From the NCBI GenBank assembly GCA_038045765.1, contig JBBSXN010000003.1, positions 94,356 through 158,355 on the forward strand: a stretch of 64,000 bases of DNA. Direction: 5' to 3'. The stretch comes from Nanobdellota archaeon. GTDB taxonomy: Archaea; Nanobdellota; Nanobdellia; Pacearchaeales; GW2011-AR1. This document shows positions 11,554 through 60,449 of the stretch, piece by piece. Position numbers and translations under genes: made by a program. Each line of letters starts with the position of its first letter. The stretch's first letter is position 1. A model generated the notes under the pieces. That model was given only the letters and a program-made list of their open reading frames with translations, was not told the origin of the DNA and did not search any database.

Positions 11554-11634
11554 TATTAAGGTATAAAAATGTTTTTACTAAACATTTTCTATCATTAACA
11601 AGATTTAAAAATCATTTATTCTAACCCTTATTGT

Positions 11635-11707
11635 GCCTCAATCGTATAATGGTTCAGTACACATCCCTGTCGCGGATGAGATCCGGGTCCGATTCCCGGT
11701 TGGGGCG
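11635..11707 (+). tRNA. tRNA-Asp (anticodon GUC)
   Basis: Hand-folded cloverleaf. Acceptor GCCTCAA/TTGGGGC; D-stem GTAT/GTAC; anticodon stem CATCC/GGATG with loop CTGTCGC; T-stem CCGGG/CCCGG; discriminator G; no encoded CCA. Forms a GC-rich island in AT-rich DNA. Caveat: the T-loop TCCGATT has C at position 55. Confidence 0.85.
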
Positions 11708-11710
11708 TTT
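11697..11710 (+). repeat. attL core
   Basis: CGGTTGGGGCGTTT, overlapping the T-stem 3' strand, acceptor 3' strand and 3 nt of trailer of tRNA-Asp. Confidence 0.75.
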
Positions 11711-11752: not shown

Positions 11753-12934
11753 GTGGCTTATAAGGAAAAAAGAGGTTACATCCCAATGAAAATAGATCCA
11801 TATAAGCATAAAGAAAGATATTTCAAATGGAAAGAAAAGACCAAAGATGGAATTTTAGACATAAGCGAAACTAATTCTAATTTGATTAAACAATATATTT
11901 CTGATATGGAAAAAGGAATTAACATCGCTTCTAAAGCAGTAAAAGGATCAAGAAGTCCTATTCGTCTTAATACATTGATAGGAAGACTAATATTTTTTGC
12001 TACTAAGTTTAAAAATATTTATTCTATTGATAATATTATTGAGATAACTGAAGATCAGCTCATTAGTTTCTTTTCAGACATGATGAATGGTACTATACTA
12101 AAGGTTGATGGACAAAAATATCAGTCCGTAGACACCTATACGAAGATTTTCAAGGCATTTTGGCACTGGCATCAGAAAGTTAATAGAAAGAAAGGAATTG
12201 AGATAAAAGATATTACTGAAGATTTAGATACTAGACAGGAAAAACCAGATTGGGTTTATCTTACTGAAGACCAAGTAAGAAAACTTTGTAATAAAGCCAA
12301 GTTTGAATACAAAGTTCTAATAATGTTCTTGTTTGATACTGGAATTAGAAGTCCTACTGAGTTAGTTAATGTTAAAGTTTCTGATTTGTATAATGATTGT
12401 AAGGAATTGAACATAAGAGAGGAAACTTCTAAGACTTTTGGAAGAAGAATAAAGATTATGCTCTGTTCTCAGCTTTTAAAAGAATATATTGATAATCTTA
12501 ATCTTAAACCAGAAGATTATTTATTTCAAATTAAAGCACCAAGTGTTAATAAATACCTCAAAAGACTTGCTAAGAGTGTTTTAGGAGATGGAGTAAGTCT
12601 TGCAGGTAAGAAATATAGTGATATAACTCTATATGACTTCAGGCATGTTTCTTGTTGCTATTGGTTACCTCGTTATAAGTCAGAATCAGCATTAAAATAT
12701 AGATTTGGATGGAAAAAGTCAGATAAAATCCATTATTATTCTGAGCTTTTGGGTATGAAAGATACAATTTCAGAAGAAGATATATTTCTAGATACTACCA
12801 AAACCGAGCTAGAAAACAATCTTGAAGCCACAAAAAGAGAAAACACACTCTTACAAGAACGTGTAAATAATATGGAAATTCAAATGCAGAAGATTTTAGA
12901 GGTTACTAGTAGGTTGAATGAAAAATTTAATTAA
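11753..12934 (+). CDS. tyrosine recombinase / integrase
   Basis: FDTGIRSPTEL (Arg I), LYDFRHVSCCYWL (H-x-x-R region), GWKKSDKIHYYSE (catalytic Tyr region). The tracked start is GTG; an in-frame ATG lies at 11786. Confidence 0.85.
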   Translation: MAYKEKRGYIPMKIDPYKHKERYFKWKEKTKDGILDISETNSNLIKQYISDMEKGINIASKAVKGSRSPIRLNTLIGRLIFFATKFKNIYSIDNIIEITEDQLISFFSDMMNGTILKVDGQKYQSVDTYTKIFKAFWHWHQKVNRKKGIEIKDITEDLDTRQEKPDWVYLTEDQVRKLCNKAKFEYKVLIMFLFDTGIRSPTELVNVKVSDLYNDCKELNIREETSKTFGRRIKIMLCSQLLKEYIDNLNLKPEDYLFQIKAPSVNKYLKRLAKSVLGDGVSLAGKKYSDITLYDFRHVSCCYWLPRYKSESALKYRFGWKKSDKIHYYSELLGMKDTISEEDIFLDTTKTELENNLEATKRENTLLQERVNNMEIQMQKILEVTSRLNEKFN

Positions 12935-13205: not shown

Positions 13206-13829
13206 TTATTTGGAAGGTATCATTTCAATAGCTTTCTGAAGAGCTCTATCTGGTAAATCTGGAAGAATATCTTTGATAGACTTTTGTATACCTGCAAAAT
13301 TCCATTGTTCGTAAAGATTTCCGTTATTTGAAGTTCTACTATGAAAATGTCTATACCATTCAATCTCTTTTAAGGGAATAACTATAAAGAAAGGTTCATG
13401 GTTATGAACAACTACGAGATGTGCCTCTGGCCAGAATTGAAGATATTCCTTAATTTGAGCATATCTAAAACCAAAAAGTGCCGTCTTAGGTTCTCTATGA
13501 TCTATAAATGATCTATATTTAACATCAATTAACAAAATTTGATTAGTCACTTTATTAACTGCAATAAAATCAGGCATTGATCTAATACGCTTGCCTATAT
13601 TATCCTCATTATTACTTTTCAACAACTTTTTCAGCTCATCAATATGGTTTTCCATACCATATTTTATACATTGCCAATTTGGTGTAGAATTAATCAAGAA
13701 TTCTACTATATTCTCAGCCATATTACCCATAGCTTTATTTTCAGCCCAAGCAGTTTCTGAATCTGTCATTTTATATCTCTGCATAATTATGCAAACGTGC
13801 CTTATAATATTATCTGCTTTATTATGCAT
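13206..13829 (-). CDS. PD-(D/E)XK nuclease-fold protein (restriction-endonuclease-like)
   Basis: SMPDFIAVNKVTNQILLIDVKYRS gives the D..(D/E)xK pattern. The real start is probably Met21 (13769), leaving a 62-nt intergenic region with an operator-like palindrome. Confidence 0.55.
   Translation of the reverse strand: MHNKADNIIRHVCIIMQRYKMTDSETAWAENKAMGNMAENIVEFLINSTPNWQCIKYGMENHIDELKKLLKSNNEDNIGKRIRSMPDFIAVNKVTNQILLIDVKYRSFIDHREPKTALFGFRYAQIKEYLQFWPEAHLVVVHNHEPFFIVIPLKEIEWYRHFHSRTSNNGNLYEQWNFAGIQKSIKDILPDLPDRALQKAIEMIPSK
13780..13793. promoter_or_regulatory. 14-bp perfect palindrome TGCATAATTATGCA (candidate operator)
   Basis: Lies between the divergent nuclease-like and wHTH genes. An extra half-site TTATGCA is at 13822-13828. 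Confidence 0.4.
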
Positions 13830-13831
13830 AT

Positions 13832-14050
13832 ATGGTTAGAAAGCCTATAACTGATATTATTGAAAACATAAAGACACTTTTAGAGAAAGAAAGTGAACTA
13901 TCAATAAGACAGATTTCTCTTAAAACTAAATCTCAATGGAGAACGATAGAGAAGGCATTGGAAACTATGAAATCTTTAGGTGTTGTTAAAGAAAGAAAGG
14001 GTAATGAAACTGAAAGGGTCGAGAGATTGTTTTCAATTAATAGAAAATAA
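13832..14050 (+). CDS. small winged-helix DNA-binding protein
   Basis: 72 aa. SIRQISLKTKSQWRTIEKALETMKSLGVVKE has an HTH-plus-wing pattern. Confidence 0.5.
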   Translation: MVRKPITDIIENIKTLLEKESELSIRQISLKTKSQWRTIEKALETMKSLGVVKERKGNETERVERLFSINRK

Positions 14051-14102: not shown

Positions 14103-14200
14103 GTATCCAAAAGATACCACTCAAACGGCGATCCTCGTTTGAAGTACGGAGCAATCCGTCTCATCGAGAATTAAACCTTTACCTCTCCCTTCGGGAGGGG
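14103..14200 (+). ncRNA. candidate structured RNA (or rolling-circle single-strand origin)
   Basis: Four consecutive hairpins in a locally GC-enriched stretch: GTATC/GATAC (14103-14117), TCAAACG/CGTTTGA (14121-14142), ACGGA-GCAA-TCCGT with a GNRA loop (14146-14159), and CCTCTCC/GGAGGGG (14182-14200). Confidence 0.3.
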
Positions 14201-14213
14201 TTTTTTATTTTTT
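14182..14213 (+). terminator. hairpin plus T-tract terminator
   Basis: 7-bp GC-rich stem CCTCTCC-CTTCG-GGAGGGG followed by TTTTTTATTTTTT. It abuts the stop codon of the convergent 369-aa gene. Confidence 0.6.
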
Positions 14214-15321
14214 AAAAATTAAGTTCTGTCTGATCAACTGTCTTTTCAGGCGTTTTAAGCTCGTCAGTTTCTTTATTCATAGCTCGTAATATAAATTTTA
14301 ATTCATCTTTTTCAGGTAAGCTTCTATATCTCACTTTAAATATTTTATCTTCATTTTCTCCAATTAGTTCAACTGCTGAATCAAAATTTTGAGTTCTTTC
14401 ATTTTTGAATTTTATTTTTTGAAAACCTTTCATTGCATCCATAATTAAGGTTTTATTAAATTGGAGTCTATCATTACTATTAAATGAGGGTAGGGTGTAC
14501 ATATCCTTCAAATATTTAACTAAATCACTTAGTTTTACTTCAAATACGTGCTCTTTCTTATCTTTCCATTCTATTATTTTCTCAATATCTCCTTTATTTA
14601 TAAGTTCTGGGAAAATTTCAGTCCACATAAGCACCATGATATATTCTATAGGAGTTTTGTCAGCTTCCTCGTATATCTTAAACTTTCCTAAATCTTCTTT
14701 TAACTCACTAGACATTTTTTTATAGCCAATTTTGAGTAATTCAGTAATAGAAGAATCGGATAACTCTCCTTTTTCTAAATCAAGCATTATAAATTCAGTC
14801 TGGGCACCGTTAGTTATTGAATATGTTATTAACGCGAATTTATTATTAAACATTTTAATTCCCTCTTTCTCCTTTTTTTCAAGATATTTTACTTTAAGAT
14901 AGCCTACTGCTTCAATATCTCTTTTAGGTAGCATTAAAATTAAATCATGTTCAATTGAATCAATTTCTTTAAAACTATTATCATAACTTTTTAGTTGATT
15001 TATTATTCTAGACTCTATATAATCTTTAATATAATCTTTGTTTTTTGGAAAGTTTTCTGGTTTACATAAAGATTTCTTAATTTCTCCTACCCAAAAACCA
15101 TTAGGTAATTTAACAAGAATATCTGGAGTTAAAGTTTTGTTAGATTCTTTCAAATTTAAATTTGCTCCAAAATAAAATGTCCCATTAGCTTTCTCCATTA
15201 CAAATCTTCTAAAACAGAGAAGCGATTTTAGAGCAGTTATATAGTTAGATATTTCTACCATTTTTTTACTTATCATTTCACTAGATTCAGCTTTGTTTTC
15301 CATCAATAACCTCCCCATCAT
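14212..15321 (-). CDS. uncharacterised protein with N-terminal PD-(D/E)XK-like motif (last gene of the R-M-linked operon)
   Basis: TPDILVKLPNGFWVGEIKKS gives D..ExK. The remainder has no recognisable motif. Overlaps the upstream gene by 35 nt. Confidence 0.55.
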   Translation of the reverse strand: MMGRLLMENKAESSEMISKKMVEISNYITALKSLLCFRRFVMEKANGTFYFGANLNLKESNKTLTPDILVKLPNGFWVGEIKKSLCKPENFPKNKDYIKDYIESRIINQLKSYDNSFKEIDSIEHDLILMLPKRDIEAVGYLKVKYLEKKEKEGIKMFNNKFALITYSITNGAQTEFIMLDLEKGELSDSSITELLKIGYKKMSSELKEDLGKFKIYEEADKTPIEYIMVLMWTEIFPELINKGDIEKIIEWKDKKEHVFEVKLSDLVKYLKDMYTLPSFNSNDRLQFNKTLIMDAMKGFQKIKFKNERTQNFDSAVELIGENEDKIFKVRYRSLPEKDELKFILRAMNKETDELKTPEKTVDQTELNF

Positions 15322-16354
15322 AATTTCTCATAAGAAAATTTACTAATCCGTTAAAAGACAAGGAAGTAACTTGAGTCTGAGGAATAACTATTATCTCTGA
15401 AGAAGAAGTAATAAGTAGTTCGTAACTAGATCCAGCATTATAATCATGTATTAGCATAAATAGATGTATTCCCTCCTTAAAGAGTATCGAATAACCCCAG
15501 TTATTAAGTGTTTTGTGTATAGAATTAATAAACTGATCTATGTCTTCTGGTTGTCGAAATACCTCTTCATCCATAACAAATTTAATAGGTTTTGGCTCTA
15601 AGCTAGTTAGATTTCTAGACCTCTCTTTTAATATATCTTCATAAAATTTACTATATTTAGAGATAATCTTTTCTAGAAACAATTTTTCTATTGTAGAATA
15701 TAACAAAGACCCATATTGAATAATTCCCTTTCTATTTATTCTTACACTGCCGGAATTACCTCTTTCACTTATAGATAATTGTATTCCATCTACCCATAAA
15801 AAGTTTTCATTAGCTTTATTAAATAGTTCCTTATAAGTTATATTTTCCCATGCTAAATCAATTTTCTTTTTTACATAATATCTTTTTAAAACGTAACTTT
15901 TTACGGCTATTTCTGCTTTGTCTTCATTTTCAATTTTCTCAAGTATTTCCTTAATTTCAAAAGACCTTAAATATATTCTAGACAATATGGGGGAATATCT
16001 ATTTAAAAGAGATAAAATCTTATTGAAACCATCTTTATCTATATTGGTAATTAAGACTACAAACGGGGCATTTTTAGCAATTAGTAAATAATTTTTAATT
16101 TTATCTTTTACTTTTTCATCATGATTTTCTAATATTATCTTTAGAAGCTTAACTTCATCATTTTCATATTCTGTTAAGAAATTTATGCCTTCAATATCGA
16201 TAGGTTTTAATTTTTCAAGCAATTCATATAATGGCTTACGATTATCATATAAGAAAACTAGCGATCTTAATGGTTTATTGGGTAGAGGTTTAATACTATC
16301 TAATATTTTAAAAACTTCTCCTTCTTTAGTGAAATGAAATATCTTATAATCCAT
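15287..16354 (-). CDS. uncharacterised protein (fourth gene of the R-M-linked operon)
   Basis: 355-aa ORF starting 24 nt downstream of the DUF2779-like gene. No motif recognised. Confidence 0.55.
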   Translation of the reverse strand: MDYKIFHFTKEGEVFKILDSIKPLPNKPLRSLVFLYDNRKPLYELLEKLKPIDIEGINFLTEYENDEVKLLKIILENHDEKVKDKIKNYLLIAKNAPFVVLITNIDKDGFNKILSLLNRYSPILSRIYLRSFEIKEILEKIENEDKAEIAVKSYVLKRYYVKKKIDLAWENITYKELFNKANENFLWVDGIQLSISERGNSGSVRINRKGIIQYGSLLYSTIEKLFLEKIISKYSKFYEDILKERSRNLTSLEPKPIKFVMDEEVFRQPEDIDQFINSIHKTLNNWGYSILFKEGIHLFMLIHDYNAGSSYELLITSSSEIIVIPQTQVTSLSFNGLVNFLMRNYDGEVIDGKQS

Positions 16355-16378
16355 ATTTTTACTTGATAAACTACCTTT

Positions 16379-17917
16379 TTAACTTTTTATAATCTTGTTT
16401 AGTCTCTCCAATATCCACACCATCCCTTCAGTATCTTGTCCACAATACTTCTCTAAATCTGTCCTAACTTTCTTAATTTCTCGGGGTGTTGCCTTTTTTC
16501 CATCAAAAGAACCATGAGTAATAAAAAGATATTCAAGAGAAGCTTCAGTTCCATTACCTATTTCCATATCTCCATATCCTTTACCAGTAAGTGCTGGTAA
16601 AACTTCCTTTAATGATGCTGAACCTTTCTGTATAGGATTATAGTAAGCAAAATTTTTGAATGGATCATATAAATCAAGTATTCTCTCAAAAATAGATTCT
16701 ACCCAAGAAGCATTCTCTGGAAAGAATTCTGCTATTTCTTTTAATCTACTCTTTTCAAAAGGTTGATAGTATGCAAGAATAGTTCCTTCTTTGCCTAATG
16801 CTTTCTTAAGCTCTTTGGTAAACTCTGGTCTTGGGTCATCGCTTCCAAATGCAATAAATGAATGATGTTTGGGTTTAGTTCCTTTCTTTTCTATAACATG
16901 AACTGAGAATTGGAAAGGAAGGGCTTGGTAAGGCTTTAATTTGTCATATAAAGGTATTGCTGTTGCATATGTCTCAAAATCCATAAAATATAGAGGATAC
17001 TTTAAACTTTGAATGAATTCTTTTAGTTCATCCTTATTATGGTATGTTTTTCCAGTTTTAGTTGCATCATATTGTATTTTTTGTTGTTTTTTCTGAGCTC
17101 TTGTAGTAAAATTATTTTCACCCATATCTTTAATAGACAAAATACCTTCATTGAATAATTCTATTGCTTTCTTTCCACCATAATATAAATCAAATATATT
17201 ACATTCAGGATTTTCTTTCCAAAATGTATCGTTTTTATGAATTTCTTCAAAATTCTTCTTATAATATTCCTCTTTTCCTAAACAACAAGAATCTCCTACT
17301 TTTATCTCAGGGCATTTTTTTAGATTTATTATTTTGAATAGCTTTTCTATATTTTCAGGAACATTTTTTATCTCATCTTCAACTTTATCTGTTACTGAGG
17401 CTATAACAAAGAATTCTTTAGCTTTTATCTTTCCTTGTTTAACATATTCATTGTTTATATGTACAACAAAACAATTTCTCACTTTTAACCCAGCCGATTC
17501 ATAACAATATCTTTGAAATGCAATATCCAAAATATACTCTTCCTTAACTTTAGTTGCACTTTTAACTTCATAAATATCCCATTCATCTTTTCCAACAGGA
17601 ACTAAAATATCTGCTCTCGCATAACATTTACCATCTTTATGAATAAAACCAGCTTCAAATATTGGTTTTCTTTTTTTTAGTAATTCCCTAGTCTCTTTAT
17701 CATTCTCTTTATGGTTTAATTGCTCTTTTACTTCAATTCCATCGGGAAAAAGAGTCTTGGATAATTCTCCAATTCTATGTCCTTCATCAAATCTATGTTG
17801 CATAGCATCATCAACTTTAGGAAGTTCTGAAGGATTATTGAATGCTAACCAGATGTATTTCTTGCATTCTAATCCAGATATATACTTGGATTTTGTGAGA
17901 TAGGTTTGATATTTCAT
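16379..17917 (-). CDS. DUF2779-like protein: Cas4/RecB-type PD-(D/E)XK nuclease domain plus C-terminal DFET..PFQFS domain
   Basis: RADILVPVGKDEWDIYEVKS (D..ExK), DIAFQRYCYE (QxxxY), Cys residues at GLECKKY and KKCPEIKVGDSCC, then YFMDFETYATAIPLYDKLKPYQALPFQFSVH as I recall for DUF2779. Confidence 0.65.
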   Translation of the reverse strand: MKYQTYLTKSKYISGLECKKYIWLAFNNPSELPKVDDAMQHRFDEGHRIGELSKTLFPDGIEVKEQLNHKENDKETRELLKKRKPIFEAGFIHKDGKCYARADILVPVGKDEWDIYEVKSATKVKEEYILDIAFQRYCYESAGLKVRNCFVVHINNEYVKQGKIKAKEFFVIASVTDKVEDEIKNVPENIEKLFKIINLKKCPEIKVGDSCCLGKEEYYKKNFEEIHKNDTFWKENPECNIFDLYYGGKKAIELFNEGILSIKDMGENNFTTRAQKKQQKIQYDATKTGKTYHNKDELKEFIQSLKYPLYFMDFETYATAIPLYDKLKPYQALPFQFSVHVIEKKGTKPKHHSFIAFGSDDPRPEFTKELKKALGKEGTILAYYQPFEKSRLKEIAEFFPENASWVESIFERILDLYDPFKNFAYYNPIQKGSASLKEVLPALTGKGYGDMEIGNGTEASLEYLFITHGSFDGKKATPREIKKVRTDLEKYCGQDTEGMVWILERLNKIIKS

Positions 17918-17921
17918 TGAA

Positions 17922-20567
17922 TTAGTCTAAAGCATTAATTAGCTCATCTTTAAATTCATTTTCTTTACTTTCATTATAGAATGGAAGACCAATTAATTTA
18001 TATTTTCTCGTTTCTATAAACTTAACACTCTTAGAAGACTTATATTTTTCCTTTATTTCTTTCATAAAGTCTTCCTTCCATCCCTCTTTGCCAGTCTTAA
18101 ACGTTCCATCAGCACCTAAGAATTGAGAACCTTTTGGTTCAATGAATATTTGATAAGTTAGGCTCTCTCCAGATTTATTTTTCATAAAAAGAACAAAATC
18201 GGGGGAACAAGCTTGACCATCTTTAAAGTTATAAATTTTAAAATGTAATTCATTTCTAATAAGATAAATATCTTTGTATTTATCTTTAAAGTTCTCTTCA
18301 ATTAATCTATTTATTAAATTAATACAAGCCTTTTCTTCGCTAGTTCCAAAATTAGCATTGAAAACATACCACTCTTTATTCTTTAGAAAGTCTTCCTGAC
18401 CATCAGCCCTTTCAGATCCACTCTCTAGTTTGATTGTTTTATCATGGAATATATCTACTATTCTATTTGGAGTGAAGTCGGTTGAACCTTTATAATCTAT
18501 AAAATTACCCTTTAGTTTATCTTCTATTTCATCAAGAACTTTAATTACTGCATAGTATTTATCTTTATTAGTTAGATTAGATATATCTTCCTTTGTAGCC
18601 CAAAAAGTTATCTTTATGTCTGCAAGATACTCTTTCTTACTAATGAAGTCTCGAATAGAATCAATATTTTTGCAGAATCTTCTAAGGTTATTGAATTTAT
18701 AAAATTCTTTTTTTGATAATGCAGAATAAACTATGTGATAGTCAATTTCTTTTATTGACAAAGTCTTTGGCTCTTTCTTTATATTTAAATTGTCATACAC
18801 CCCATCAGTCATTACTTGAGAAACGCTTCCTTTATACGAAAAGAGATCATATTTGAAATCTTTCTCTTTGACACCCAAGTCTTCAAATGATTTAACATAT
18901 GAATAATCATTCTCAATTTTAGAGTTCAAATATATCTTTCCATCTCTATAGAAGATGGTTTTTTTGAAATTCTCCTTTAATTTTAACTCTTTTTCAATTG
19001 TTTTATCATCAATTAAACCTTCATTGACTAACGCAGTTTTTAGCTCAGCTATATATCTAGATTCATTAAAACTATGGAAATGAAGTTCTTCTAATATTCT
19101 TAAATCATTCTCAAGATCTTCATCGAACTTTCGTTTGTAAACATCTAAGTCTATATTTGAAACCTTAAATGGATAGTATCTTGCTCCTCTACCTATTAAC
19201 TGTGCTTCTGAGATTGTTGATGGAGATACTCCTCCTTTTGTTCCTCCTCCTGCGGATTGCCCTTCATATACTCTTACGATGTCATATAAATTGAGAACAT
19301 CCCACCCTTCGTTTAATTTTTGAACTGCAAAAATAGCTCTAATCTTATTATCTTTATCTTCTAATGAATTAAGTGTCAATTGATAATCATCCATTTCTTT
19401 TTCGTCATTTACACTTAAACACTTATTTGGTTCAAAACTAGATCTTAATTTTTGAATTAATAGTTCGGTTGAAATCCCTCCTTTTTCATAGAAGCTGAAA
19501 GCTCTTTTTATCTCTTTTATATCAGTCTTCTTCTTTAGTTCTTCTATATCCTTTTTAGATAATTCATCAATTATTTTATGAAAAAGTTGTTTATTTTCCT
19601 TAGATTGTTCGATGGTTTTTTGAGCTTTAAATAAAATAATTGGTTTTAGATCAATACCATACTTGCTAGCAATATCTTGTCTATACTGATTTAGAATAAT
19701 TGCTAAAAGTATTCTTCCCTTTTTATCTGCATCAGACCTTAATATTTCAATATCTTTAGAATACTTATCTCCCCTAAATGATCTTAAATCATATTTATAT
19801 ATAACTTTATTAATATATTTTTGTTCAATAGATTTATTCATAAAATCCATTGTTGCTGTAAATTCTAACAAGATATTTTCTTTATTTTTACCAAATATAT
19901 TCAAGACGGTATTTTCCCAATTTGGCTTTTCAAATTCTCTTAAAAGTGTTTGTTGCTTAGTGTGAACCTGTCCATGATGGGCTTCATCAGAAATGAAAAC
20001 GATTTTATTTTCCTTAAAATCTTCAAAAGTTAATGAGTTTTCTTTTTCAGTATATAAATCAGAGTGTAATTTTTGAATAGTTGTAAAACATATATTTATA
20101 CCATCATTATTTGTCCCATCAAAATTATCAACTTTGTTTATTTTTATCTGCTTGTTATTAAATATTATCTTTTTATTAAATAAATATTTGCTTGAATCTT
20201 CCTTTGTGAAATTTTCTATTGTCTTTTTTATTATATTACTAGAATTTACAAAAAAAAGAAAGTTTCTATATCCCTTTTCGTATAAGTAAAGCATCAGTCC
20301 AGCCATGATTAACGTTTTACCACTACCCGTAGCCATGTTAAAGAGTAATTGTGTTGGGTTTTGTTTTTCGGGATTCTTCCCACTCATATAATAAAAAAAT
20401 CTAGTAAAAGCTTCTTTTTGATAAGGCCTTAATGGAAATTTTGGATTAAGATTCTCGCTTAACGTCTTTGGAATGTTTTTATACTCATCTAAAAAACCGA
20501 AACCAGAAAAATTATCAAATTTTTCATACAAGTAATTTTGTTTAACTGCTAGTGTTGTCTCTGACAT
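17922..20567 (-). CDS. res: type III restriction enzyme Res subunit (helicase-nuclease)
   Basis: NMATGSGKT (motif I), ISDEAHHG (DEAH), QLIGRGAR (motif VI), and the C-terminal nuclease CSPDFVLF..IFIEPKG. Confidence 0.85.
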   Translation of the reverse strand: MSETTLAVKQNYLYEKFDNFSGFGFLDEYKNIPKTLSENLNPKFPLRPYQKEAFTRFFYYMSGKNPEKQNPTQLLFNMATGSGKTLIMAGLMLYLYEKGYRNFLFFVNSSNIIKKTIENFTKEDSSKYLFNKKIIFNNKQIKINKVDNFDGTNNDGINICFTTIQKLHSDLYTEKENSLTFEDFKENKIVFISDEAHHGQVHTKQQTLLREFEKPNWENTVLNIFGKNKENILLEFTATMDFMNKSIEQKYINKVIYKYDLRSFRGDKYSKDIEILRSDADKKGRILLAIILNQYRQDIASKYGIDLKPIILFKAQKTIEQSKENKQLFHKIIDELSKKDIEELKKKTDIKEIKRAFSFYEKGGISTELLIQKLRSSFEPNKCLSVNDEKEMDDYQLTLNSLEDKDNKIRAIFAVQKLNEGWDVLNLYDIVRVYEGQSAGGGTKGGVSPSTISEAQLIGRGARYYPFKVSNIDLDVYKRKFDEDLENDLRILEELHFHSFNESRYIAELKTALVNEGLIDDKTIEKELKLKENFKKTIFYRDGKIYLNSKIENDYSYVKSFEDLGVKEKDFKYDLFSYKGSVSQVMTDGVYDNLNIKKEPKTLSIKEIDYHIVYSALSKKEFYKFNNLRRFCKNIDSIRDFISKKEYLADIKITFWATKEDISNLTNKDKYYAVIKVLDEIEDKLKGNFIDYKGSTDFTPNRIVDIFHDKTIKLESGSERADGQEDFLKNKEWYVFNANFGTSEEKACINLINRLIEENFKDKYKDIYLIRNELHFKIYNFKDGQACSPDFVLFMKNKSGESLTYQIFIEPKGSQFLGADGTFKTGKEGWKEDFMKEIKEKYKSSKSVKFIETRKYKLIGLPFYNESKENEFKDELINALD

Positions 20568-20569
20568 GG

Positions 20570-22519
20570 TTAATTATAAAACTTTTTATTTAATTCTTTA
20601 TCTTCTTTACTTATTTTAAACTCTGCATCTTCCATCTCTGATAAATTTACATATAATTGGTTTTTATTTAACATCTCACAAAGTAATTTCTTTTGGTTAG
20701 TCAATGATAATTTTTCAAATTCAGATTTATTATCATCAAATTTCTTAATATCTACATCATAATTTAAGAAATATTTACCACACATCTCATTCCATATTTT
20801 TAGCAATTGTTTTGTGTCTTTTGCATCTTGTATTCCTTCCATTGCTTCTTCGTTATGTTTCATTAGTTCACAATAGACAATATTAGAATGGGAAATACCT
20901 TGTTTTGAGTCTAATTCTATTACTTTGTTGAGTCTCTTAAGAATAACCTCTGCATGTGCATCCAATTGTTCAATTAAAATAAACTTTCTATTTCCTCCAT
21001 CTTCTTTGTTTAATTCTAAAGTAGCATGTCCAGTTGTACCACTTCCTGCAAAAAAATCTAAGATTATGTCTTCTTTATCAGCCATAATTTTTATTGTGTC
21101 TAAAACAGCATAAAGTGGCTTAGGATAACTAAATATTCTTTTTCCAAGTAGTTCTTCTAGCAATTTAGTACCATTATTAATCGCATTATATCTTGTGCCA
21201 ATCCAATGAGTTTTTATTACCTGGCCCTTTTCTTCCCTATATTTTTCATAAATTTGCACCTTTTTATTCTCATCTATTTGCGCTACTATTTCTCCATCAC
21301 CTATTTGTTTGGAAAGAGTTTCTTTGATGGTTTTCCAAGTTCTTTCTTGCCCTGAATTAGTTATTGGAAGAATTTCAGAGTAATCTTCTTTTTTTTCCAA
21401 AGTTATTTTTTTCAAATCTTTACTAACATATACTGGATAAAAAAAGTGAGTTTTATTTTTCCTAAGATTTTGATCCCCTCCACCTAACCTTATGTAATTA
21501 TTAAGTCTATATCTTCCAAGAGAATCATTTTTATTAAAAGATTCTTTTTTCTCTTCATCTAATATTACTCCTCTAAAATTAGCTAAATCTTTATTTTTAG
21601 AATAAACTAGCATAAAATCATTGGAAGTTCCAAAAAATTTTTCTTGATTTCTTCCCTCAGGTTTGTGAACTACTGATACTACCCCGATCCTATTTTCTCT
21701 TCTGAATATATCATCTGCCAATGCTCCTAAATAGAATAGTTCATAGTGATCAATGGCTATAGCAATAAATCCATCTTCTCGTAACAATTCTTTTGCAATC
21801 TCTAATCTATTCTTCATAAAAGTTAGCCATGTAGAGTGACTGAAAGTATTGTTATAAGTGAAAGTTTCAGTATTCCCTTGAGTGTTGTATGGTGGATCAA
21901 TATAAATTAGTTTAACTTTTCCAGCAAATTCCTTCTTCAAAGAATGTAGGGCGATAAGATTATTCCCTTTAATGATTAAATTATCATTTATTGTTCCGCT
22001 TTTATCGCGGTTAAAATCTTTAACTTTTTCTTCACCCTTAGAATTGTATTTTTTAAAATTGGTTAAAATTTTTGGATCTAATAGTCTATCAATCTCATCT
22101 TGAGCCAAAATCTCATTAAAGAATATTTCGTTTCTTTTTTCATCTTCTTTTGTCATTCCACCTTCCAATACACAATCTTTGAATGGCCAGACAAGAGAGA
22201 CTTCTTTTCTTTCATTTAAGAATTTTCCATCAATATTTAATCCAATCTTATTCTTGAATTTAGTATATGAATCGCTTAAAAAGTTCTTATCCTGAACATA
22301 GGAAACAAAGAGGTTTATCTCGAAAATCCAATGTCCTTTAATCTCTGAAAAAAATTTACTCTTTACTTCCTTATCTTCCAATAAAAGAGATATTAACTCC
22401 TTATCTATCTTATATGCACTATTTACAACTTCGTTCCGTATTAATTCTCCAGATTCTTCATCTACTAATCTTAAATCCTTCTTTAACAAAGATATGAGTT
22501 TTTGATTAAATTTGTCCAT
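20570..22519 (-). CDS. mod: type III (beta-class) DNA methyltransferase Mod subunit
   Basis: KLIYIDPPYNT (motif IV DPPY) precedes LDFFAGSGTTGHA (motif I FxGxG). This is the beta-class order typical of Mod/N6-N4 methyltransferases. Confidence 0.85.
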   Translation of the reverse strand: MDKFNQKLISLLKKDLRLVDEESGELIRNEVVNSAYKIDKELISLLLEDKEVKSKFFSEIKGHWIFEINLFVSYVQDKNFLSDSYTKFKNKIGLNIDGKFLNERKEVSLVWPFKDCVLEGGMTKEDEKRNEIFFNEILAQDEIDRLLDPKILTNFKKYNSKGEEKVKDFNRDKSGTINDNLIIKGNNLIALHSLKKEFAGKVKLIYIDPPYNTQGNTETFTYNNTFSHSTWLTFMKNRLEIAKELLREDGFIAIAIDHYELFYLGALADDIFRRENRIGVVSVVHKPEGRNQEKFFGTSNDFMLVYSKNKDLANFRGVILDEEKKESFNKNDSLGRYRLNNYIRLGGGDQNLRKNKTHFFYPVYVSKDLKKITLEKKEDYSEILPITNSGQERTWKTIKETLSKQIGDGEIVAQIDENKKVQIYEKYREEKGQVIKTHWIGTRYNAINNGTKLLEELLGKRIFSYPKPLYAVLDTIKIMADKEDIILDFFAGSGTTGHATLELNKEDGGNRKFILIEQLDAHAEVILKRLNKVIELDSKQGISHSNIVYCELMKHNEEAMEGIQDAKDTKQLLKIWNEMCGKYFLNYDVDIKKFDDNKSEFEKLSLTNQKKLLCEMLNKNQLYVNLSEMEDAEFKISKEDKELNKKFYN

Positions 22520-22556: not shown

Positions 22557-23513
22557 CTATCCAATAAAGTCATTCAAGTCTTTTGGTGGTGGCTCTCGCT
22601 TATATCTCCCAACTCCAAAAATCATATCATATTCTTCAGAACCCTCATAAATATACATGTATCTACCACCACAATCTTTACAGACTCTTTTTTCTTTTGT
22701 TATCTTAGGAATATCATAAAAGTCTCCGAAAGTAAATAATAATCTACGTCCAAAAGTCTTTTCAAAGAATTCTGCTTTTTGTTTATCGGTTAAATCAATA
22801 ATGCCCTTTGTAAGATATTTTAAAACATATCTTAATGCACCTTCACGACCCTTTACAGGCCTAATATCGACTATATAACTTCCCTTGGAGCATCTTTTCC
22901 AGACTTCAACAAGTTTTGTATCTTGACCTGTTTTATTATGAGATCTCATGTCTAAATAACGAGAGTCTATAATAAAGTGTGCATGAACATTCCATAAGCC
23001 ATCATTGCCTACTTTTACTTCAATACATCCCAAACCTCCATAAATATGCTCTTTTACATATTTATCTCTCTTAAAACGAGTGATGCTTTCAAAAAGTTCA
23101 TCTATGGCTTTAATCATATCGCTCTGATTAACTATGGTTAATGTAAGAAACTTTAAACCTCTTCCATTAAAATAGTGAGGAATAGGTTTTACCTTTATTA
23201 TTTCTATATACTTATCATAGAATTTATATGATCTAATTTTCCCACAAAATTCACAAACCCGATAGTTACATCTTTTCTTAACTTTGAGAATATTACAATT
23301 GCATATAAATATATGAAATCCTTTACCGCAATTTCTTAGTCTTATACTTTGAGTTTTTAATTCATCAGATAGATGCATACTTATTTGTATATTATCAAGT
23401 AAAGGGCGTTCTTCGAACGCCTGGGGAGGGGAGGTAGGAAAAACGCAATTTTCTCCTGCTAAAGCTGGAGGAGAAAATTGCTCTGACTCAGAGATGGCTG
23501 GGAGAGTATTCAT
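22557..23513 (-). CDS. rep: rolling-circle replication initiator, pC194/Rep_1-like HUH endonuclease
   Basis: FLTLTIVNQ (motif 1), NVHAHFII (HUH motif 2), ALRYVLKYLTKG (Tyr motif 3), and the zinc-ribbon-like CNCN..CNYRVCEFCGK. The true start may be Met46 (23378) because the first 45 codons are GC-rich and hold origin-like sequence. Confidence 0.75.
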   Translation of the reverse strand: MNTLPAISESEQFSPPALAGENCVFPTSPPQAFEERPLLDNIQISMHLSDELKTQSIRLRNCGKGFHIFICNCNILKVKKRCNYRVCEFCGKIRSYKFYDKYIEIIKVKPIPHYFNGRGLKFLTLTIVNQSDMIKAIDELFESITRFKRDKYVKEHIYGGLGCIEVKVGNDGLWNVHAHFIIDSRYLDMRSHNKTGQDTKLVEVWKRCSKGSYIVDIRPVKGREGALRYVLKYLTKGIIDLTDKQKAEFFEKTFGRRLLFTFGDFYDIPKITKEKRVCKDCGGRYMYIYEGSEEYDMIFGVGRYKREPPPKDLNDFIG

Positions 23514-24772: not shown

Positions 24773-24786
24773 CGGTTGGGGCGTTT
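24773..24786 (+). repeat. attR core
   Basis: Identical CGGTTGGGGCGTTT copy. No tRNA body precedes it, so it is a displaced tRNA 3' end. Confidence 0.75.
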
Positions 24787-29059: not shown

Positions 29060-29890
29060 TTAGAACATTGCTTCTATTTGGTCTGAGTAATCTGGGTTTT
29101 GAATTTTATTTCTTCTTTCTATTTCTTCTAGGCAGGCTTGTCTTTTACTGTTAAATAGGTCATTTATTTCACCAATAGGGTATTTTCTTATATCTGTTCC
29201 ATATTCTAATAGCTGGTCTGCTATTCTATTAAGTTCTAGTCTAAAATCATCTATATCTTCTAAACCAAAGGTATAATCTTTAGAGACCCCTAGTTTTAGA
29301 TAATGGAAACTTGTTTTTGAGGGAATTATGTTCTTCTTTTGATGTAATAATAGATTGTAAAATAATGCTTGGCGTTCAAAATTCTCATTTCTGCTTATGC
29401 TATTACTTGTTTTGTAATCTATAATTACTAATTTATCATCTTCTTTTTTTGTTGCTTGTAGATCTATAACTCCCTTTATGCCTATTTTCATCTTTTCATT
29501 TTCTTTCAAAGGAAAGGATATAATTTCTTCAGTAATATGATTATCATGAGCATCTACTACTTGAATTCCTTGCAACATAGCAGTTAGATATTCTATGGAA
29601 TTTAGAGAATTACCTCTTAGGTCTTTATGCATGTTAAGATTGTGAGTTTCCCATTTGTCTAATAAATGTAAACAAGCTTGGTCTTTATCTAAGTCTTTTT
29701 TTGCATATTTTTCAAGGCAGTCGTGGACAATTTTACCTGAAAGAGAATAGCAAACTGGAACTTTTGTATCATCTTCTACTTTCGCTATATATGTAAGATA
29801 AAATAAAAGTGGACTTTGATAAAATATGTTAAGACTAGATGGAGATAAATTAAATGAGATCTTATCTATGCCTTCTTTTTTCAAATCCAT
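29060..29890 (-). CDS. PD-(D/E)XK (RecB/Cas4-like) nuclease
   Basis: GVIDLQATKKEDDKLVIIDYKTS (D..DxK) and RQALFYNLL (QxxxY). Confidence 0.65.
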   Translation of the reverse strand: MDLKKEGIDKISFNLSPSSLNIFYQSPLLFYLTYIAKVEDDTKVPVCYSLSGKIVHDCLEKYAKKDLDKDQACLHLLDKWETHNLNMHKDLRGNSLNSIEYLTAMLQGIQVVDAHDNHITEEIISFPLKENEKMKIGIKGVIDLQATKKEDDKLVIIDYKTSNSISRNENFERQALFYNLLLHQKKNIIPSKTSFHYLKLGVSKDYTFGLEDIDDFRLELNRIADQLLEYGTDIRKYPIGEINDLFNSKRQACLEEIERRNKIQNPDYSDQIEAMF

Positions 29891-31005: not shown

Positions 31006-31587
31006 ATGAAAAAAGAGGTTAGAGGTAAATTATTACTTTTAGGAATACTATCATTAATCTCTTTATTATTTACAGTTATTATTTATTATTCTGGGTTTGA
31101 TAAACCAGTAGAGAATTATTTTCATTATGAAAATGAAGGATTTTTTAATTTAATTATGAATTATATTACTTTACTTGGAGGAAGAGAGGGAATAATGGTT
31201 ATTTCTTTATTTATTGTTAGTTTTCTTTTAATTAAGAAGATGTATAATTACATTTTATTCTATTTAGTGAGTGTTGCTGGTGCGACACTTTTCAATTATG
31301 AATTGAAGAATTTATTCCAGAGAGTAAGACCTGAAGTTTATGGAAGTGAATTTGCTTTTCCGAGTGGACATACAATGGCTTCTACTGTTGCTTTTGGAGC
31401 TTTAGCTTTATTGTTATGGCCTAAAAATAAAAAATTAGCTATTGGTTTACTTGTATTTCCATTATTAATCGGATTTAGCAGAATTTACTTAGATGTGCAT
31501 TGGTTGAGTGATATATTTGGAGGATTTTTCTTTGCAACTCTCTGGTTAGCTATCACATTTTATCTTTTCTATGGGTGGAAAAAGTGA
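31006..31587 (+). CDS. PAP2 family lipid phosphatase
   Basis: KNLFQRVRP, PSGH and SRIYLDVHWLSD form the tripartite PAP2 motif. Confidence 0.85.
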   Translation: MKKEVRGKLLLLGILSLISLLFTVIIYYSGFDKPVENYFHYENEGFFNLIMNYITLLGGREGIMVISLFIVSFLLIKKMYNYILFYLVSVAGATLFNYELKNLFQRVRPEVYGSEFAFPSGHTMASTVAFGALALLLWPKNKKLAIGLLVFPLLIGFSRIYLDVHWLSDIFGGFFFATLWLAITFYLFYGWKK

Positions 31588-32630
31588 AGAAATCTGTTAA
31601 AATTCCCATTGGTTCTTTTAGAATTGGTAAAGACTTGAAAAGTTACGAGTTAACTAAAAATGGTTGGAAGAAATCAGGAAAGGAATTTCCTGAAGCAGTT
31701 CACGCTGTTAAACTGTTTAAAGCGAATGGAAGACTCTCTGAATTGATTGATAAGAATGAGAAGAGATTTTTGAAGGGTTATATGTCTAATGGAGAGATAA
31801 AAGGTGCAAGGTTGAATATGTTGCCAAATGGCGATAAATTGGATAAGGCTTACTCTCTTTTTGCTGAAAACCTGGCAATTCATGATGAAAAGTCTCATGA
31901 TCACTGGGATGTTATTTATAAAAATCCTAATGGAGAGTATGCTTATGTTTATACTCTTAAGAAAGATATAAGTTCAAAAAATGAGAAATATAGAAAAGTT
32001 AAGGAATTTGAGAAGATATTTCCTAAGCTGAAAAAGAATGTATCTTTGGCTTTGAATAAGCATGAACCCATGGCTTTACCTATGCTTACTTTACTTAATA
32101 CTCATATCAGGATAGGCAATGAGATTTATTATAAGTTGCATAAGCATAAAGGCCTTTCTACTTTAATGAAAAAGGATGTCAATATTAAGAAAGATAATGT
32201 AATTTTTCATTATCTTGGTAAGGATGGAGTTCCTATTGATATAAATAAGGAATTTCCTGAAGGGTATATATCTCAATTAAAACATTTACTTAGTAAAATA
32301 GGTAATAATGATTTTATATTTAAAAATTCTAATGGGAATTTATTGAAAGAAAGTGATTTTAAAGGTGCTTTCAAGAAGTATTGTGGAGAAGAGTTTTATC
32401 CACATATTGTTAGGTCTTATATCGCTACGGAAAAAGCAAAAGAATTTCTAAATAAACATAAATCTGCTAAGAAAGAGGAAGTAAAAGACCTTTTTAATTC
32501 GATTGCATCAGAACTAGGACATAAGAAGTTTGATAAAAAGAGTGGGGAATGGAAAGATAGCTATAATGTTACAATTCATCATTATATTGAACCAAGTTTA
32601 GTTGAAAAGATTCAAAATTTAGTTAATTGA
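31575..32630 (+). CDS. DNA topoisomerase IB (small viral/bacterial type)
   Basis: THIRIGNEIYYK, KGLSTL, FHYLGKDGVP, PHIVRSYIAT, ELGHK and the catalytic-Tyr context HHYIEP follow the TopIB R-K-R-H-Y order. Confidence 0.6.
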   Translation: MEKVKKSVKIPIGSFRIGKDLKSYELTKNGWKKSGKEFPEAVHAVKLFKANGRLSELIDKNEKRFLKGYMSNGEIKGARLNMLPNGDKLDKAYSLFAENLAIHDEKSHDHWDVIYKNPNGEYAYVYTLKKDISSKNEKYRKVKEFEKIFPKLKKNVSLALNKHEPMALPMLTLLNTHIRIGNEIYYKLHKHKGLSTLMKKDVNIKKDNVIFHYLGKDGVPIDINKEFPEGYISQLKHLLSKIGNNDFIFKNSNGNLLKESDFKGAFKKYCGEEFYPHIVRSYIATEKAKEFLNKHKSAKKEEVKDLFNSIASELGHKKFDKKSGEWKDSYNVTIHHYIEPSLVEKIQNLVN

Positions 32631-34159: not shown

Positions 34160-35020
34160 TTATTGTTTGAGGTATCTCTTTTTGTGAACCATTATGTATC
34201 TTCTTGTGAAATAGGATGTAAAACCTTCTTCATCTTTCTGTAATGCTTTGTAGTATGACTTTCTCCTTTTGTATTCTATTATTATCATGGGGTATCCTGC
34301 ATGCCAAAGTATATGATTCATAAGCAAACGGCCTATTCTGCCATTTCCATCTCCGAATGGATGCACTTTCTCAAATTTATAATGCGCTCTTGCAGAAAGT
34401 TCAACAGGATTTATCTTTTTGTTATTTTTCATAAATTCAATGAGCTGTTTCATCATCTCATTAACTTCTTGCCAGTCAGGAGCAAGATAAGGACCTACTC
34501 GCACTATATAATCTCTAAATTTTCCAGATATATCTGATTTGGTTGACTCAAAAATTCTTTTATGCCAATCTAATAAAATTTCATTAGTTATTTCTTCTTT
34601 TTTATTAAGCATTTCAAGAAATACTTGGCTATGGTACTCTGTTTCTTTTACATCTCTTAATGGCTTATTTGGAGAGACTTTATCATGTATAATCTCTCTC
34701 GCTTCCTCTAAGGTAATAGTTGAGCCTTCAATAGCGTTTGTGTTATATGTAAATGCTACAGATATTTCTTCCAGTTCTTTTTTTCTCGCACTTTCAGGTA
34801 TTCTTTTCCATTCTGACTGGAAATTATCTTTTATTAATTCTAGCTTTTTGTTCAAGTCACTTTTTATTTCTTTCATGAAGTTTTTCTTTATTTCTTCAAT
34901 ATCTTTAGGTATCTCAGAACCCAAATACTTTTCTTTTGTTATTACTTTATTTCCTTTTCTAAATGAATGTTGCAAGTAATAATAGTTTTTTAGGCCTTTT
35001 TTTCTTTGAATTATTCTCAT
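34160..35020 (-). CDS. Fic family protein (AMPylase-type)
   Basis: HPFGDGNGRIGRLLMN is the Fic active-site motif. The N-terminal TNAIEG fits the [S/T]xxxE[G/N] inhibitory-helix motif. Confidence 0.9.
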   Translation of the reverse strand: MRIIQRKKGLKNYYYLQHSFRKGNKVITKEKYLGSEIPKDIEEIKKNFMKEIKSDLNKKLELIKDNFQSEWKRIPESARKKELEEISVAFTYNTNAIEGSTITLEEAREIIHDKVSPNKPLRDVKETEYHSQVFLEMLNKKEEITNEILLDWHKRIFESTKSDISGKFRDYIVRVGPYLAPDWQEVNEMMKQLIEFMKNNKKINPVELSARAHYKFEKVHPFGDGNGRIGRLLMNHILWHAGYPMIIIEYKRRKSYYKALQKDEEGFTSYFTRRYIMVHKKRYLKQ

Positions 35021-59460: not shown

Positions 59461-59970
59461 TCACTCAAAACTCAAACTACCTTCATCATCAATTCTACCA
59501 ACTTGCCAGATATAATTCTTTTTTGATATAACTGTCTTAATCTGTTTTCTTATGGTGTTTAGGGAGGCTATCTTAGAGATTTTTGATAAAAAGATAATGT
59601 CTTTTATATTATCATTATCAGTCATTCCATTAAATACTAGAAAATCAATAGGACTAAGGACAGGTTTAACATCAAAAGGGTTTAGCTTTAATTTTCTAAA
59701 GATGGGTAAAATAACTTTATTTACAATCTTTTTAGCTTCATTTCTTCCTTTCTCAACGGCTAAATCTCTAATCTTCCTTTCTTTTTCCTCAAATTTTATC
59801 TCTTGTTCACTCATTGCAATTATCTTAGATTCATAAGTATCTAACCAAGTTTTCTCAATTGGTTTTTTTACTTTCAGATGTAAGTCTGAAACTCGAACTA
59901 TTTCTCCACAACATGGACAAATACAGAGTATCTTTCTTAATTCTCCAAATTCTTCAAATAGATTACTCAT
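59461..59970 (-). CDS. Holliday-junction-resolvase-related endonuclease paralog, probably catalytically inactive
   Basis: N-terminal zinc ribbon CICPCCGE. The core SPIDFLVFNG..IIFLSKISKIASLN aligns with the neighbour's EPIDLIIFHG..RFLEVKSGKAKLN, but Ser and Ile replace the E and K of ExK. Confidence 0.55.
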   Translation of the reverse strand: MSNLFEEFGELRKILCICPCCGEIVRVSDLHLKVKKPIEKTWLDTYESKIIAMSEQEIKFEEKERKIRDLAVEKGRNEAKKIVNKVILPIFRKLKLNPFDVKPVLSPIDFLVFNGMTDNDNIKDIIFLSKISKIASLNTIRKQIKTVISKKNYIWQVGRIDDEGSLSFE

Positions 59971-60449
59971 TTAAATTCCTCATATCTTACTTTATTATTT
60001 TCAATAGCTTCTTTGACTTGTTTTTGATGTTCGTTAAGCTTAGCCTTCCCACTTTTAACTTCTAGAAATCTGATAGATTCAACTTTTCCTGCTGTTAAGC
60101 CATGAAAGATTATAAGATCTATTGGTTCACCTAAAAATCGACAATCGGATAATTCCCACTCAAAATCACTCATAGTGGGAAAGACTTTCTCTAATAATTT
60201 ACCAACATTGACTGATTTAGCAGTATTCTCAGCTCCAGTTGTAGCTCTCTTCATGCCTTTTTTCAGCTCTTCTTGTCTTTTATTTAATGCTTCTTCTAGA
60301 TTTTTTTGAACTTCAATTGCTTCAAAAGGAAATGGCTTTGTTCCATCAAATAACAATGCTTCAGAAATCTTAAACTCACCACCACAACCTGAATGCTCTG
60401 CGTAAATATCAGATTCTTTTAATAATTGTATTATCTCTTCAGTCTTCAC
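59967..60449 (-). CDS. endonuclease related to archaeal Holliday junction resolvase (COG4741/Endonuc_Holl-like)
   Basis: GEPIDLIIFHGLTAGKVESIRFLEVKSGKAKLNEHQKQVKEAI gives D..ExK followed by the conserved Q. The stop overlaps the paralog start by 4 nt. Confidence 0.6.
   Translation of the reverse strand: MKTEEIIQLLKESDIYAEHSGCGGEFKISEALLFDGTKPFPFEAIEVQKNLEEALNKRQEELKKGMKRATTGAENTAKSVNVGKLLEKVFPTMSDFEWELSDCRFLGEPIDLIIFHGLTAGKVESIRFLEVKSGKAKLNEHQKQVKEAIENNKVRYEEFK

Follow-up and report, generated by a model that had tools for sequence, protein, structure and literature searches.

The RexA–RexB pair of lambda is a two-gene module on a mobile element. RexA shares with RdgC, IML3 and CHL4 one fold, which dimerizes via an extended sheet and binds DNA non-specifically (PMC11077077). 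RdgC itself is a stand-alone housekeeping gene and has no nuclease partner. Shedu (SduA), Hachiman (HamA), Gabija and the restriction-modification (R-M) endonucleases represent another arrangement, in which a predicted PD-(D/E)XK effector and a partner form a small operon in a defence island or on a mobile element. Here we describe a gene pair, A–B, that resembles each in some features. It lies in a window of 64,000 nucleotides (nt) from a Nanobdellota archaeon (GenBank GCA_038045765.1, contig JBBSXN010000003.1, positions 94,356 to 158,355), where A and B are the last two of five tightly packed genes. The original prediction had taken all five, a type III R-M operon extended by three linked genes, for one candidate composite defence system. 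Our comparison instead places the novelty in just two genes, the A–B module, rather than in a type III R-M operon extended to five. The pair is previously undescribed as far as we found; the type III R-M and the DUF2779 gene beside it are ordinary. We read the block as a mobile defence island of independent units, one of them being A–B, a new candidate two-gene system in which A would be the sensor or clamp and B the nuclease; we hold this reading with about even confidence.

Protein A, which matches RdgC, Iml3/CENP-L and CENP-N in structure searches, differs from RexA in having no sequence similarity to it (no Pfam match), in its larger size and in its three alpha/beta modules. The partners differ too: B is a soluble predicted nuclease, whereas RexB is a membrane protein, and A–B is mainly archaeal. 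RdgC is the best structural match of A (2owy/2owl), but at domain level and with no Pfam RdgC match, and A is paired with B whereas RdgC stands alone. Unlike Shedu, Hachiman and Gabija, A–B includes no helicase or ATPase, and the fold of the partner differs from any in these systems. Neither A nor B matched a model in PADLOC v2.0.0, including its PDC and HEC candidates, and no such model was recurrent in 100 members of the A superfamily. As for the other genes of the block, Mod and Res of the window fall within the definitions of the type III R-M family (EcoP15I type); the three downstream genes lie outside these definitions, and their linkage to Mod and Res is unseen elsewhere. The first of the three encodes a 512-amino-acid (aa) protein that shares its two-domain fusion with the DUF2779/solo-Cas4-DEDD nucleases (MMSYN1_0389, TM0106-like). 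The DUF2779 family is not a recognised defence gene.

Pairing and distribution of genes A and B

Gene A (15287–16354, minus strand) is unannotated and encodes 355 aa with a predicted RdgC/RexA/Iml3-like DNA-binding fold. Gene B (14212–15303, minus strand), likewise unannotated, is the second of the pair and encodes 363 aa with a predicted PD-(D/E)XK core. The longest open reading frame (ORF) of gene B has 369 aa and begins at 15321; the database copy and the gene calls have 363 aa. B more probably starts at the seventh codon of this frame, ATG 15303, which is preceded by GGGGAGG. With this start, A and B overlap by 17 nt, not 35.

B directly follows A in all 12 distinct close-family loci (BLAST over 17 loci, of which the window and 11 others are distinct). 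The same order was seen in 15 of 15 loci from metagenomes or metagenome-assembled genomes (MAGs). Three remote members of the superfamily, with ∼20–25% identity to A, each have a B homologue next to them (hhalign 98.4, 96.1 and 97.3%), with A/B overlaps of 14, 1 or 4 nt. Over the loci, A and B overlap by 26 nt at one extreme and stand 5 nt apart at the other. Pairwise identities of A and of B across 15 loci were closely correlated (Pearson 0.92, Spearman 0.90, n = 105 locus pairs), though the 105 locus pairs are not independent, so that p-values for co-divergence overstate its significance. A and B are an obligate, co-diverging pair. The predicted linkage of the 355-aa and 369-aa genes is thus borne out: they are always adjacent or overlapping.

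The remainder of the proposed linkage did not survive comparison. Type III mod or res adjoins A or B in none of the 11 other distinct close-family loci, and the 17 loci, which besides the window comprise 11 distinct ones, yielded no DUF2779 homologue apart from that of the window. Conversely, six plasmid contexts of DUF2779 contained neither type III R-M (0/6) nor A/B (0/6); their neighbours vary, and include AAA or SbcC-like ATPases, helicases, PLD, WYL and dGTPase. The idea that the five genes form one system, with DUF2779, A and B extending type III R-M mechanistically, draws on their tight packing and shared orientation in the window; moreover, independent assemblies of this element, from the same groundwater site, show an identical arrangement. 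But the arrangement is unique to this element, with no conserved co-occurrence elsewhere; in at least five loci A–B is found by itself, preceded by an intergenic region of its own; and Mod plus Res is already a complete system. This result shows that close packing of genes on a mobile element is no evidence of a single system. Because A and B are unlinked to type III mod/res and DUF2779 elsewhere, an outcome that the original prediction had itself named as refuting, the five-gene composite is not supported and we consider it highly improbable, whereas the A–B link survives.

Close relatives are rare. The close family of A comprises 20 clusters among 5.8e9 proteins, and that of B 13–20; all are unnamed or 'hypothetical' and free of Pfam domains. 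The A alignment, run exhaustively as a profile, retrieved 451 representative clusters at E ≤ 1e-3, of which 266 passed E ≤ 1e-10, and almost all measure 340–396 aa; the A superfamily thus numbers at least 451 clusters at 50% identity. No Pfam, PADLOC or NCBIfam family recurred among 100 superfamily members scanned, and ten sampled clusters carried no name beyond 'hypothetical protein'. Metagenome scans with the distant alignments A4 and A5 found no stretch conserved enough, and a close-family scan added just a few short loci. Neither A nor B of the window has a family in Pfam, PADLOC, NCBIfam or PHROG, and no published description of the pair was found in literature sought by accession and by fold terms. 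The proteins are undescribed, as had been proposed.

The A–B arrangement was also found, by tblastn, on six plasmids of cultured haloarchaea and Arthrobacter: Haloarcula marismortui pNG100 and plasmids of Halosimplex aquaticum, Natrinema sp. DC36, Halosegnis marinus and two Arthrobacter. The A-like protein of pNG100 matched the superfamily profile with E 3e-44. A local hidden Markov model of B detected the four haloarchaeal partners (9e-17 to 8e-6) and left the B-like partners on the two Arthrobacter plasmids undetected. On Arthrobacter pJ337-114 (L040, 10423–14690), a type III-like methyltransferase and a DEAD/DEAH helicase lie 1.6 kb from the A–B-like pair. This is the sole other site with type III-like R-M near the module, and its A-like gene is annotated only as a 114-aa fragment.

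In all, A–B occurs in Thermoplasmatales, Asgard (Borrarchaeum), Micrarchaeota, Methanomassiliicoccaceae, Marsarchaeota, Nanoarchaeota, Pacearchaeota, Halobacteria, Buchananbacteria of the candidate phyla radiation and Arthrobacter. This is the patchy pattern typical of mobile genes. The pair is independent of its flanking genes and is found on mobile elements and in defence islands, patchily and across domains. No relatives were found in IMG/VR or PHROGs, and a viral origin of A–B was dropped on this account.

Two variants are recorded here as side observations. In a Methanomassiliicoccaceae MAG (L001, 11040–13094), B is cut to 166 aa and a DDE transposase comes after it; insertion has probably inactivated this copy. 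In a second-tier subfamily of A (alignment A5, P0048–P0059) there is an inserted, invariant CxxC pair, C89 and C92, which suggests an added zinc-binding element.

Predicted folds of proteins A and B

Protein A had no family match in Pfam, PADLOC, NCBIfam or PHROG, and its AlphaFold2 (AF2) model is a confident one. The model has a mean predicted local distance difference test (pLDDT) score of 89 and a predicted template-modelling (pTM) score of 0.88, and consists of three strand-rich alpha/beta modules. Foldseek against the PDB returned RdgC (2owy/2owl) with E 7.5e-5 to 2.5e-4, probability 1.0 and template-modelling (TM) scores of 0.31–0.37; the alignment spans about 290–300 columns at 8–10% identity. 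Other matches were to Iml3/CENP-L (probability 0.99–1.0 for Iml3), CENP-N and RnlA. TM scores over the whole set ran from 0.18 to 0.37; for RdgC and Iml3 they were 0.25–0.37, with root-mean-square deviations (rmsd) of 8–12 Å. This set is close to the fold group of PMC11077077. The Pfam RdgC and RexA families had no match in protein A or in 100 superfamily members. A sequence-profile link to known structures was also sought and abandoned, as profiles A2 and A4 against PDB sequences gave nothing relevant. Kiwa KwaB (DUF4868) was considered as an RdgC-like precedent and dropped: PMC11785009 makes no mention of RdgC, and the PADLOC Kiwa models gave no match.

Seven invariant residues of protein A are basic (R126, R130, K157, R158, R205, R208 and R247) and sit in the central segment, which has an isoelectric point (pI) of 9.4. 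DYxSGSS and PQTQ, the motifs conserved most widely, belong to the acidic C-terminal module (pI 4.7). From the modelled structure, protein A is a predicted DNA-binding protein that resembles RdgC and Iml3 in its domains.

For protein B, the residues that are invariant in the close family (369-aa numbering) are T65-P66-D67, K82, E103 and Q109, with E or D at position 80. The signature TPD-x(10-15)-(G/S)(D/E)xK was present in 15 of 15 metagenomic/MAG loci. In the AF2 model (pLDDT 82), a long helix at the N-terminus leads into a beta-beta-beta-alpha-beta unit; there D67 precedes a strand and E80-x-K82 ends the next, before a helix and a further strand. B thus has both the conserved D...(D/E)xK of the PD-(D/E)XK motif and the fitting order of secondary structure. 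Foldseek matches were weak and mostly to nucleases (Bax1, N.BspD6I, the R2 restriction-like endonuclease, RecE and a phage restriction endonuclease); the best E-value in BFVD was 1.3e-3, with probability up to 0.92. Two further approaches were set aside: the A3 profile against PDB sequences gave nothing meaningful, and weak Pfam matches recurring across the B family yielded no nuclease family. From its motif and model, B is a predicted PD-(D/E)XK nuclease of classical layout.

Genomic neighbourhoods and the proposed role of the pair

A defence-island setting for the pair gained support from the other close-family loci, where PADLOC identified diverse defence genes. Directly upstream of A are a type IIG R-M gene in L002 (PADLOC 4.8e-61) and an LmuB-like ATPase of the structural maintenance of chromosomes (SMC) type in L006 (1.7e-29); upstream in L008 are HKD-Snf2, an IIG/DrmMI-like methylase and an unknown 447-aa gene. 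Elsewhere the neighbours include GajA/OLD-like (L011), TIR (L009) and PDC-S02 (L010; 1.9e-138) genes, type ISP R-M (L001), type I R-M (L004) and a C5 methylase (L015). Several loci contain integrases. A recognised R-M or defence gene lies within 10 kb, and often adjacent, in 10 of 12 close-family loci.

These loci also show how A–B is arranged with respect to its neighbours. In L004, L009, L010, L011 and L015, A is preceded by a divergent gene at a distance of 178–552 nt. A–B must therefore have its own promoter in these loci, which number at least five. What precedes A changes from one locus to the next, and an all-against-all BLAST of the neighbours revealed no partner recurring across A–B loci. 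Upstream genes of ∼440–480 aa in L001, L008, L013, Halosimplex and Natrinema were considered as a conserved third gene, and the candidate was rejected, since only the two haloarchaeal ones are homologous. These two, directly upstream of A–B on the Halosimplex (L037, 5390–6712) and Natrinema (L038, 5326–6711) plasmids, encode ∼440–460 aa and share 25% identity (E 2e-52); they have no similarity to the ∼450-aa upstream genes of L001, L008 and L013. There may thus be a three-gene A–B variant restricted to haloarchaea.

In our reading, the island would hold three independent units: type III Mod plus Res, a solo DUF2779 nuclease and the self-contained A–B module. Protein A, with its RdgC/RexA fold, would dimerize into a ring or horseshoe and bind DNA via its basic central module, serving as a sensor or clamp for invading or abnormal DNA. 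Protein B, the PD-(D/E)XK nuclease, would be produced in a fixed ratio with A through translational coupling, and would cleave DNA after A has engaged it. DNA binding by A, nuclease activity of B, a physical A–B interaction and a role against viruses or plasmids are what we infer for the pair.

Several observations weigh against this reading. The matches of A to RdgC, with TM scores of 0.31–0.37 and an rmsd of about 10 Å, indicate likeness at the domain level only, and RexA was not among the 50 Foldseek matches listed for A. For B, Pfam, PDB profiles and Foldseek gave no significant profile or structural match to a known nuclease; its best PDB match by Foldseek had E 0.029, and the best nuclease, Bax1, E 0.058. 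In several B-like partners from haloarchaea and Arthrobacter, the acidic or the lysine residue of the catalytic motif is missing. Their variants (L028, L037, L038, L040 and L041) read AP-T...ADV in pNG100, PD...AK in Natrinema and Halosimplex, and PD...GEIA in Arthrobacter. Judging from these motifs, such distant partners may be inactivated or rewired nucleases. The link to defence genes, though strong by count, is one of raw numbers, and L013, L017 and L018 have only housekeeping neighbours. In a distant bacterial branch (L036, 875–4826), a full-length recG follows A–B by 12 nt (1gm5, 7.5e-129), which fits a repair role too. Finally, the absence of relatives from IMG/VR and PHROGs is compatible with a cellular defence gene but uninformative on function.

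Some of these same observations would suit a role without immunity, in which A–B serves mobile elements and some chromosomes as an accessory in recombination, repair, replication or plasmid maintenance, combining an RdgC-like modulator of recombination with a structure-specific nuclease. RdgC is a recombination-associated DNA binder; plasmid pairs lie near ParA/ParB, DNA ligase and DprA; and the recG of L036 and the housekeeping neighbours of L013, L017 and L018 point the same way. Core repair genes, however, are not rare and patchy as this family is, with its 20 close clusters among 5.8e9 proteins; defence islands make up most of the close-family loci; and viral collections, where recombination modules are common, yielded no member. 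We regard such a role as unlikely, yet it is the alternative to which we give most weight.

The loci in which A follows closely on another gene raise a different possibility, that A–B is a modular accessory placed downstream of any preceding DNA-targeting system, for instance to degrade or process DNA cut or marked by an R-M or SMC-type system. A begins 2–36 nt after a co-directional gene in five loci. The preceding genes are DUF2779 after type III R-M in the window, type IIG R-M in L002, the LmuB-like gene in L006, the 447-aa gene after HKD-Snf2 and the IIG-like methylase in L008, and a 202-aa gene in L020; the type III-like methylase and helicase near the pJ337-114 pair could be added. Yet in at least five loci the preceding gene is divergent and the operon has no DNA-targeting partner, some loci have only housekeeping neighbours, and unrelated systems stacked co-directionally are ordinary in defence islands. 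An accessory role of this kind seems rather improbable.

The compact organization of A–B is also reminiscent of addiction modules of the toxin–antitoxin kind, in which A would check a toxic nuclease B and the pair would stabilize its plasmid or element. Its two genes form an operon with translational coupling, carried by plasmids and integrative elements, and in fold A weakly matches N-terminal domains of the RnlA toxin. However, those matches cover generic alpha/beta domains only (TM 0.18); with about 355 and 365 aa both proteins are large, and their length is nearly constant across the superfamily; and no toxin–antitoxin family in Pfam, NCBIfam or PADLOC was matched. We think an addiction role very unlikely.

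The host element and the significance of the pair

The five co-directional minus-strand ORFs described in the original prediction (Mod, Res, and proteins of 512, 355 and 369 aa) are present at their claimed coordinates, and the motifs noted in them were all found in the translations. Recomputed junctions agreed as well: 2 nt between Mod and Res, 4 nt between Res and the 512-aa gene, 24 nt between the latter and gene A, and a 35-nt overlap of A with the 369-aa frame of B.

Mod (20570–22519, minus strand, 649 aa) has an N6/N4 methyltransferase domain (PF01555, 1e-31), the type III-specific N-terminal domain (PF12564 TypeIII_RM_meth, 1.1e-21) and a PADLOC MTase_III match (1.9e-146). Its translation has DPPY and FAGSG, in accord with the DPPY and FxGxG motifs of the original prediction. 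Res (17922–20567, minus strand, 881 aa), 2 nt from mod, is the restriction subunit and contains a superfamily 2 helicase (PF04851 ResIII, 1.4e-32) with GSGKT and DEAH motifs and a C-terminal PD-(D/E)XK endonuclease part with PDF..EPK; PADLOC REase_III matched residues 31–878 (1.4e-128). By these family matches the two genes are, as proposed, an ordinary and complete type III R-M system at the level of its genes, with predicted restriction activity.

The 512-aa protein (16379–17917, minus strand) matched PF11074 (DUF2779) at residues 310–435 with E 4e-41 (140.7 bits against a Pfam gathering cut-off of 23.3), and NCBIfam models UU173 (1.3e-11) and TM0106 RecB-like (1.8e-6). Matches of its N-terminus to Cas4 were weak (Pfam 0.0069, PADLOC 0.001), though the D..EVK, QxxxY (QRYCY) and Cys-cluster motifs are present in the protein, as is DFET..PFQFS; the 369-aa frame of B has PDILV..GEIKK. 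In PMC3985635, DUF2779 is assigned to the 3'-5' exonuclease clade of the RNase H-like superfamily and found together with a DUF83/Cas4 domain. According to a 2026 analysis (PMC13621843), it is an uncharacterised fusion of Cas4-like and DEDDh/y domains, quasi-essential in JCVI-syn3.0. The 512-aa protein is accordingly the DUF2779-like protein that had been proposed, with a Cas4-like PD-(D/E)XK domain fused to a DEDD-type 3'-5' exonuclease domain, and is a predicted nuclease. Its gene is an independent neighbour, outside the A–B module.

The apparent transcription unit of five genes needs correction at both ends. The five are co-directional and tightly packed, but the array has seven genes and starts before Mod. 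The gene for a rolling-circle replication protein, Rep_1 (22557–23513, minus strand; PF01446, 2.2e-13), has the same orientation as Mod and stops 37 nt before it; the Rep_1 gene is itself overlapped by a gene for 66 aa. A sigma-70 promoter scan gave 62 sites against 65.9 expected, and internal promoters are not discernible by such counts. At the other end, the hairpin that was said to terminate the unit is real. This G+C-rich hairpin (14181–14201) lies between gene B and a convergent 72-aa winged-helix gene (13832–14050). Its T-tract, however, is on the plus strand, not the coding strand, and on the plus strand it scored as a canonical terminator serving the convergent gene. On the coding (minus) strand, an A-tract precedes the hairpin and only UAAAGGUUUAAUU follows, with no U-run. 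The hairpin is therefore a bidirectional terminator at best. Folding of the 81-nt hairpin region was no better than that of shuffled sequences (z = –0.76).

That the genes are cargo of a mobile element is well supported. A scan placed a tRNA-Asp gene, the insertion site of the element, at 11634–11708, adjoined by a tyrosine integrase gene (11753–12934, plus strand; PF00589, 1.1e-8; PHROG 1 integrase, 6e-21). A 14-nt repeat, CGGTTGGGGCGTTT, comprises the last 12 bases of tRNA-Asp and 2 nt beyond (attL, 11697–11710, plus strand), and a second exact copy lies at 24773–24786 (attR, plus strand). None of 100 shuffles gave as many matches. These exact repeats delimit an integrated element of ∼13.1 kb, containing the integrase, several small ORFs, the five genes, Rep_1, the 66-aa protein, which is Arc-like, and a 290-aa ORF. 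Identical copies of the element were present in independent assemblies from Hainich groundwater samples.

Other features of the window are noted for completeness. Within the element, a 207-aa ORF (13206–13829, minus strand) reads MPDF...LLIDVKY, resembling another PD-(D/E)XK motif, and had no match in Pfam, PADLOC, NCBIfam or PHROG. A second R-M gene, ∼34 kb from the element (56704–59415, minus strand), encodes a 903-aa type IIG/MmeI-like fusion with HSDR_N_2, N6_Mtase, Eco57I, MmeI_Mtase and TaqI_C domains, and two small co-directional ORFs lie downstream (59461–60449). A Fic/DOC family protein (34160–35020, minus strand) and a PDDEXK_1 nuclease (29060–29890, minus strand) are encoded amid housekeeping genes outside the element. 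Flanking genes include gyrase A/B and a 375-aa tRNA-guanine transglycosylase that matched the bacterial queuine type (7e-94) better than the archaeosine type (1e-25). By these genes the host was taken to be, probably, a low-GC groundwater bacterium. A eukaryotic-type topoisomerase IB catalytic core (31575–32630, plus strand; PF01028, 8.3e-14) is encoded in this apparently bacterial genome along with gyrase A/B.

The immunity of archaea is poorly charted. In a 2026 survey of 7747 archaeal genomes (PMC12988326), nearly one third showed no detectable defence other than CRISPR-Cas and R-M, and the survey urged a search for systems specific to archaea. A–B is found in DPANN, Asgard, Thermoplasmatota, methanogens, haloarchaea and some bacteria, and escapes the models of Pfam, PADLOC, NCBIfam and PHROG. 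If it is a defence system, it would represent a new sensor–effector combination, an RdgC/RexA-fold DNA binder with a nuclease, and would add a second, independent instance in which the RexA fold can be read as that of an immune DNA sensor. The versions on plasmids of cultured organisms make the idea directly testable. A bolder possibility, in which we place somewhat less than even confidence, is that A–B is the founding member of a large, cross-domain and largely archaeal immune family, in which an RdgC/RexA-fold ring protein senses foreign DNA and licenses a PD-(D/E)XK nuclease, a soluble, nuclease-armed counterpart of Rex exclusion. If so, current defence-finding tools would miss the A–B family entirely.

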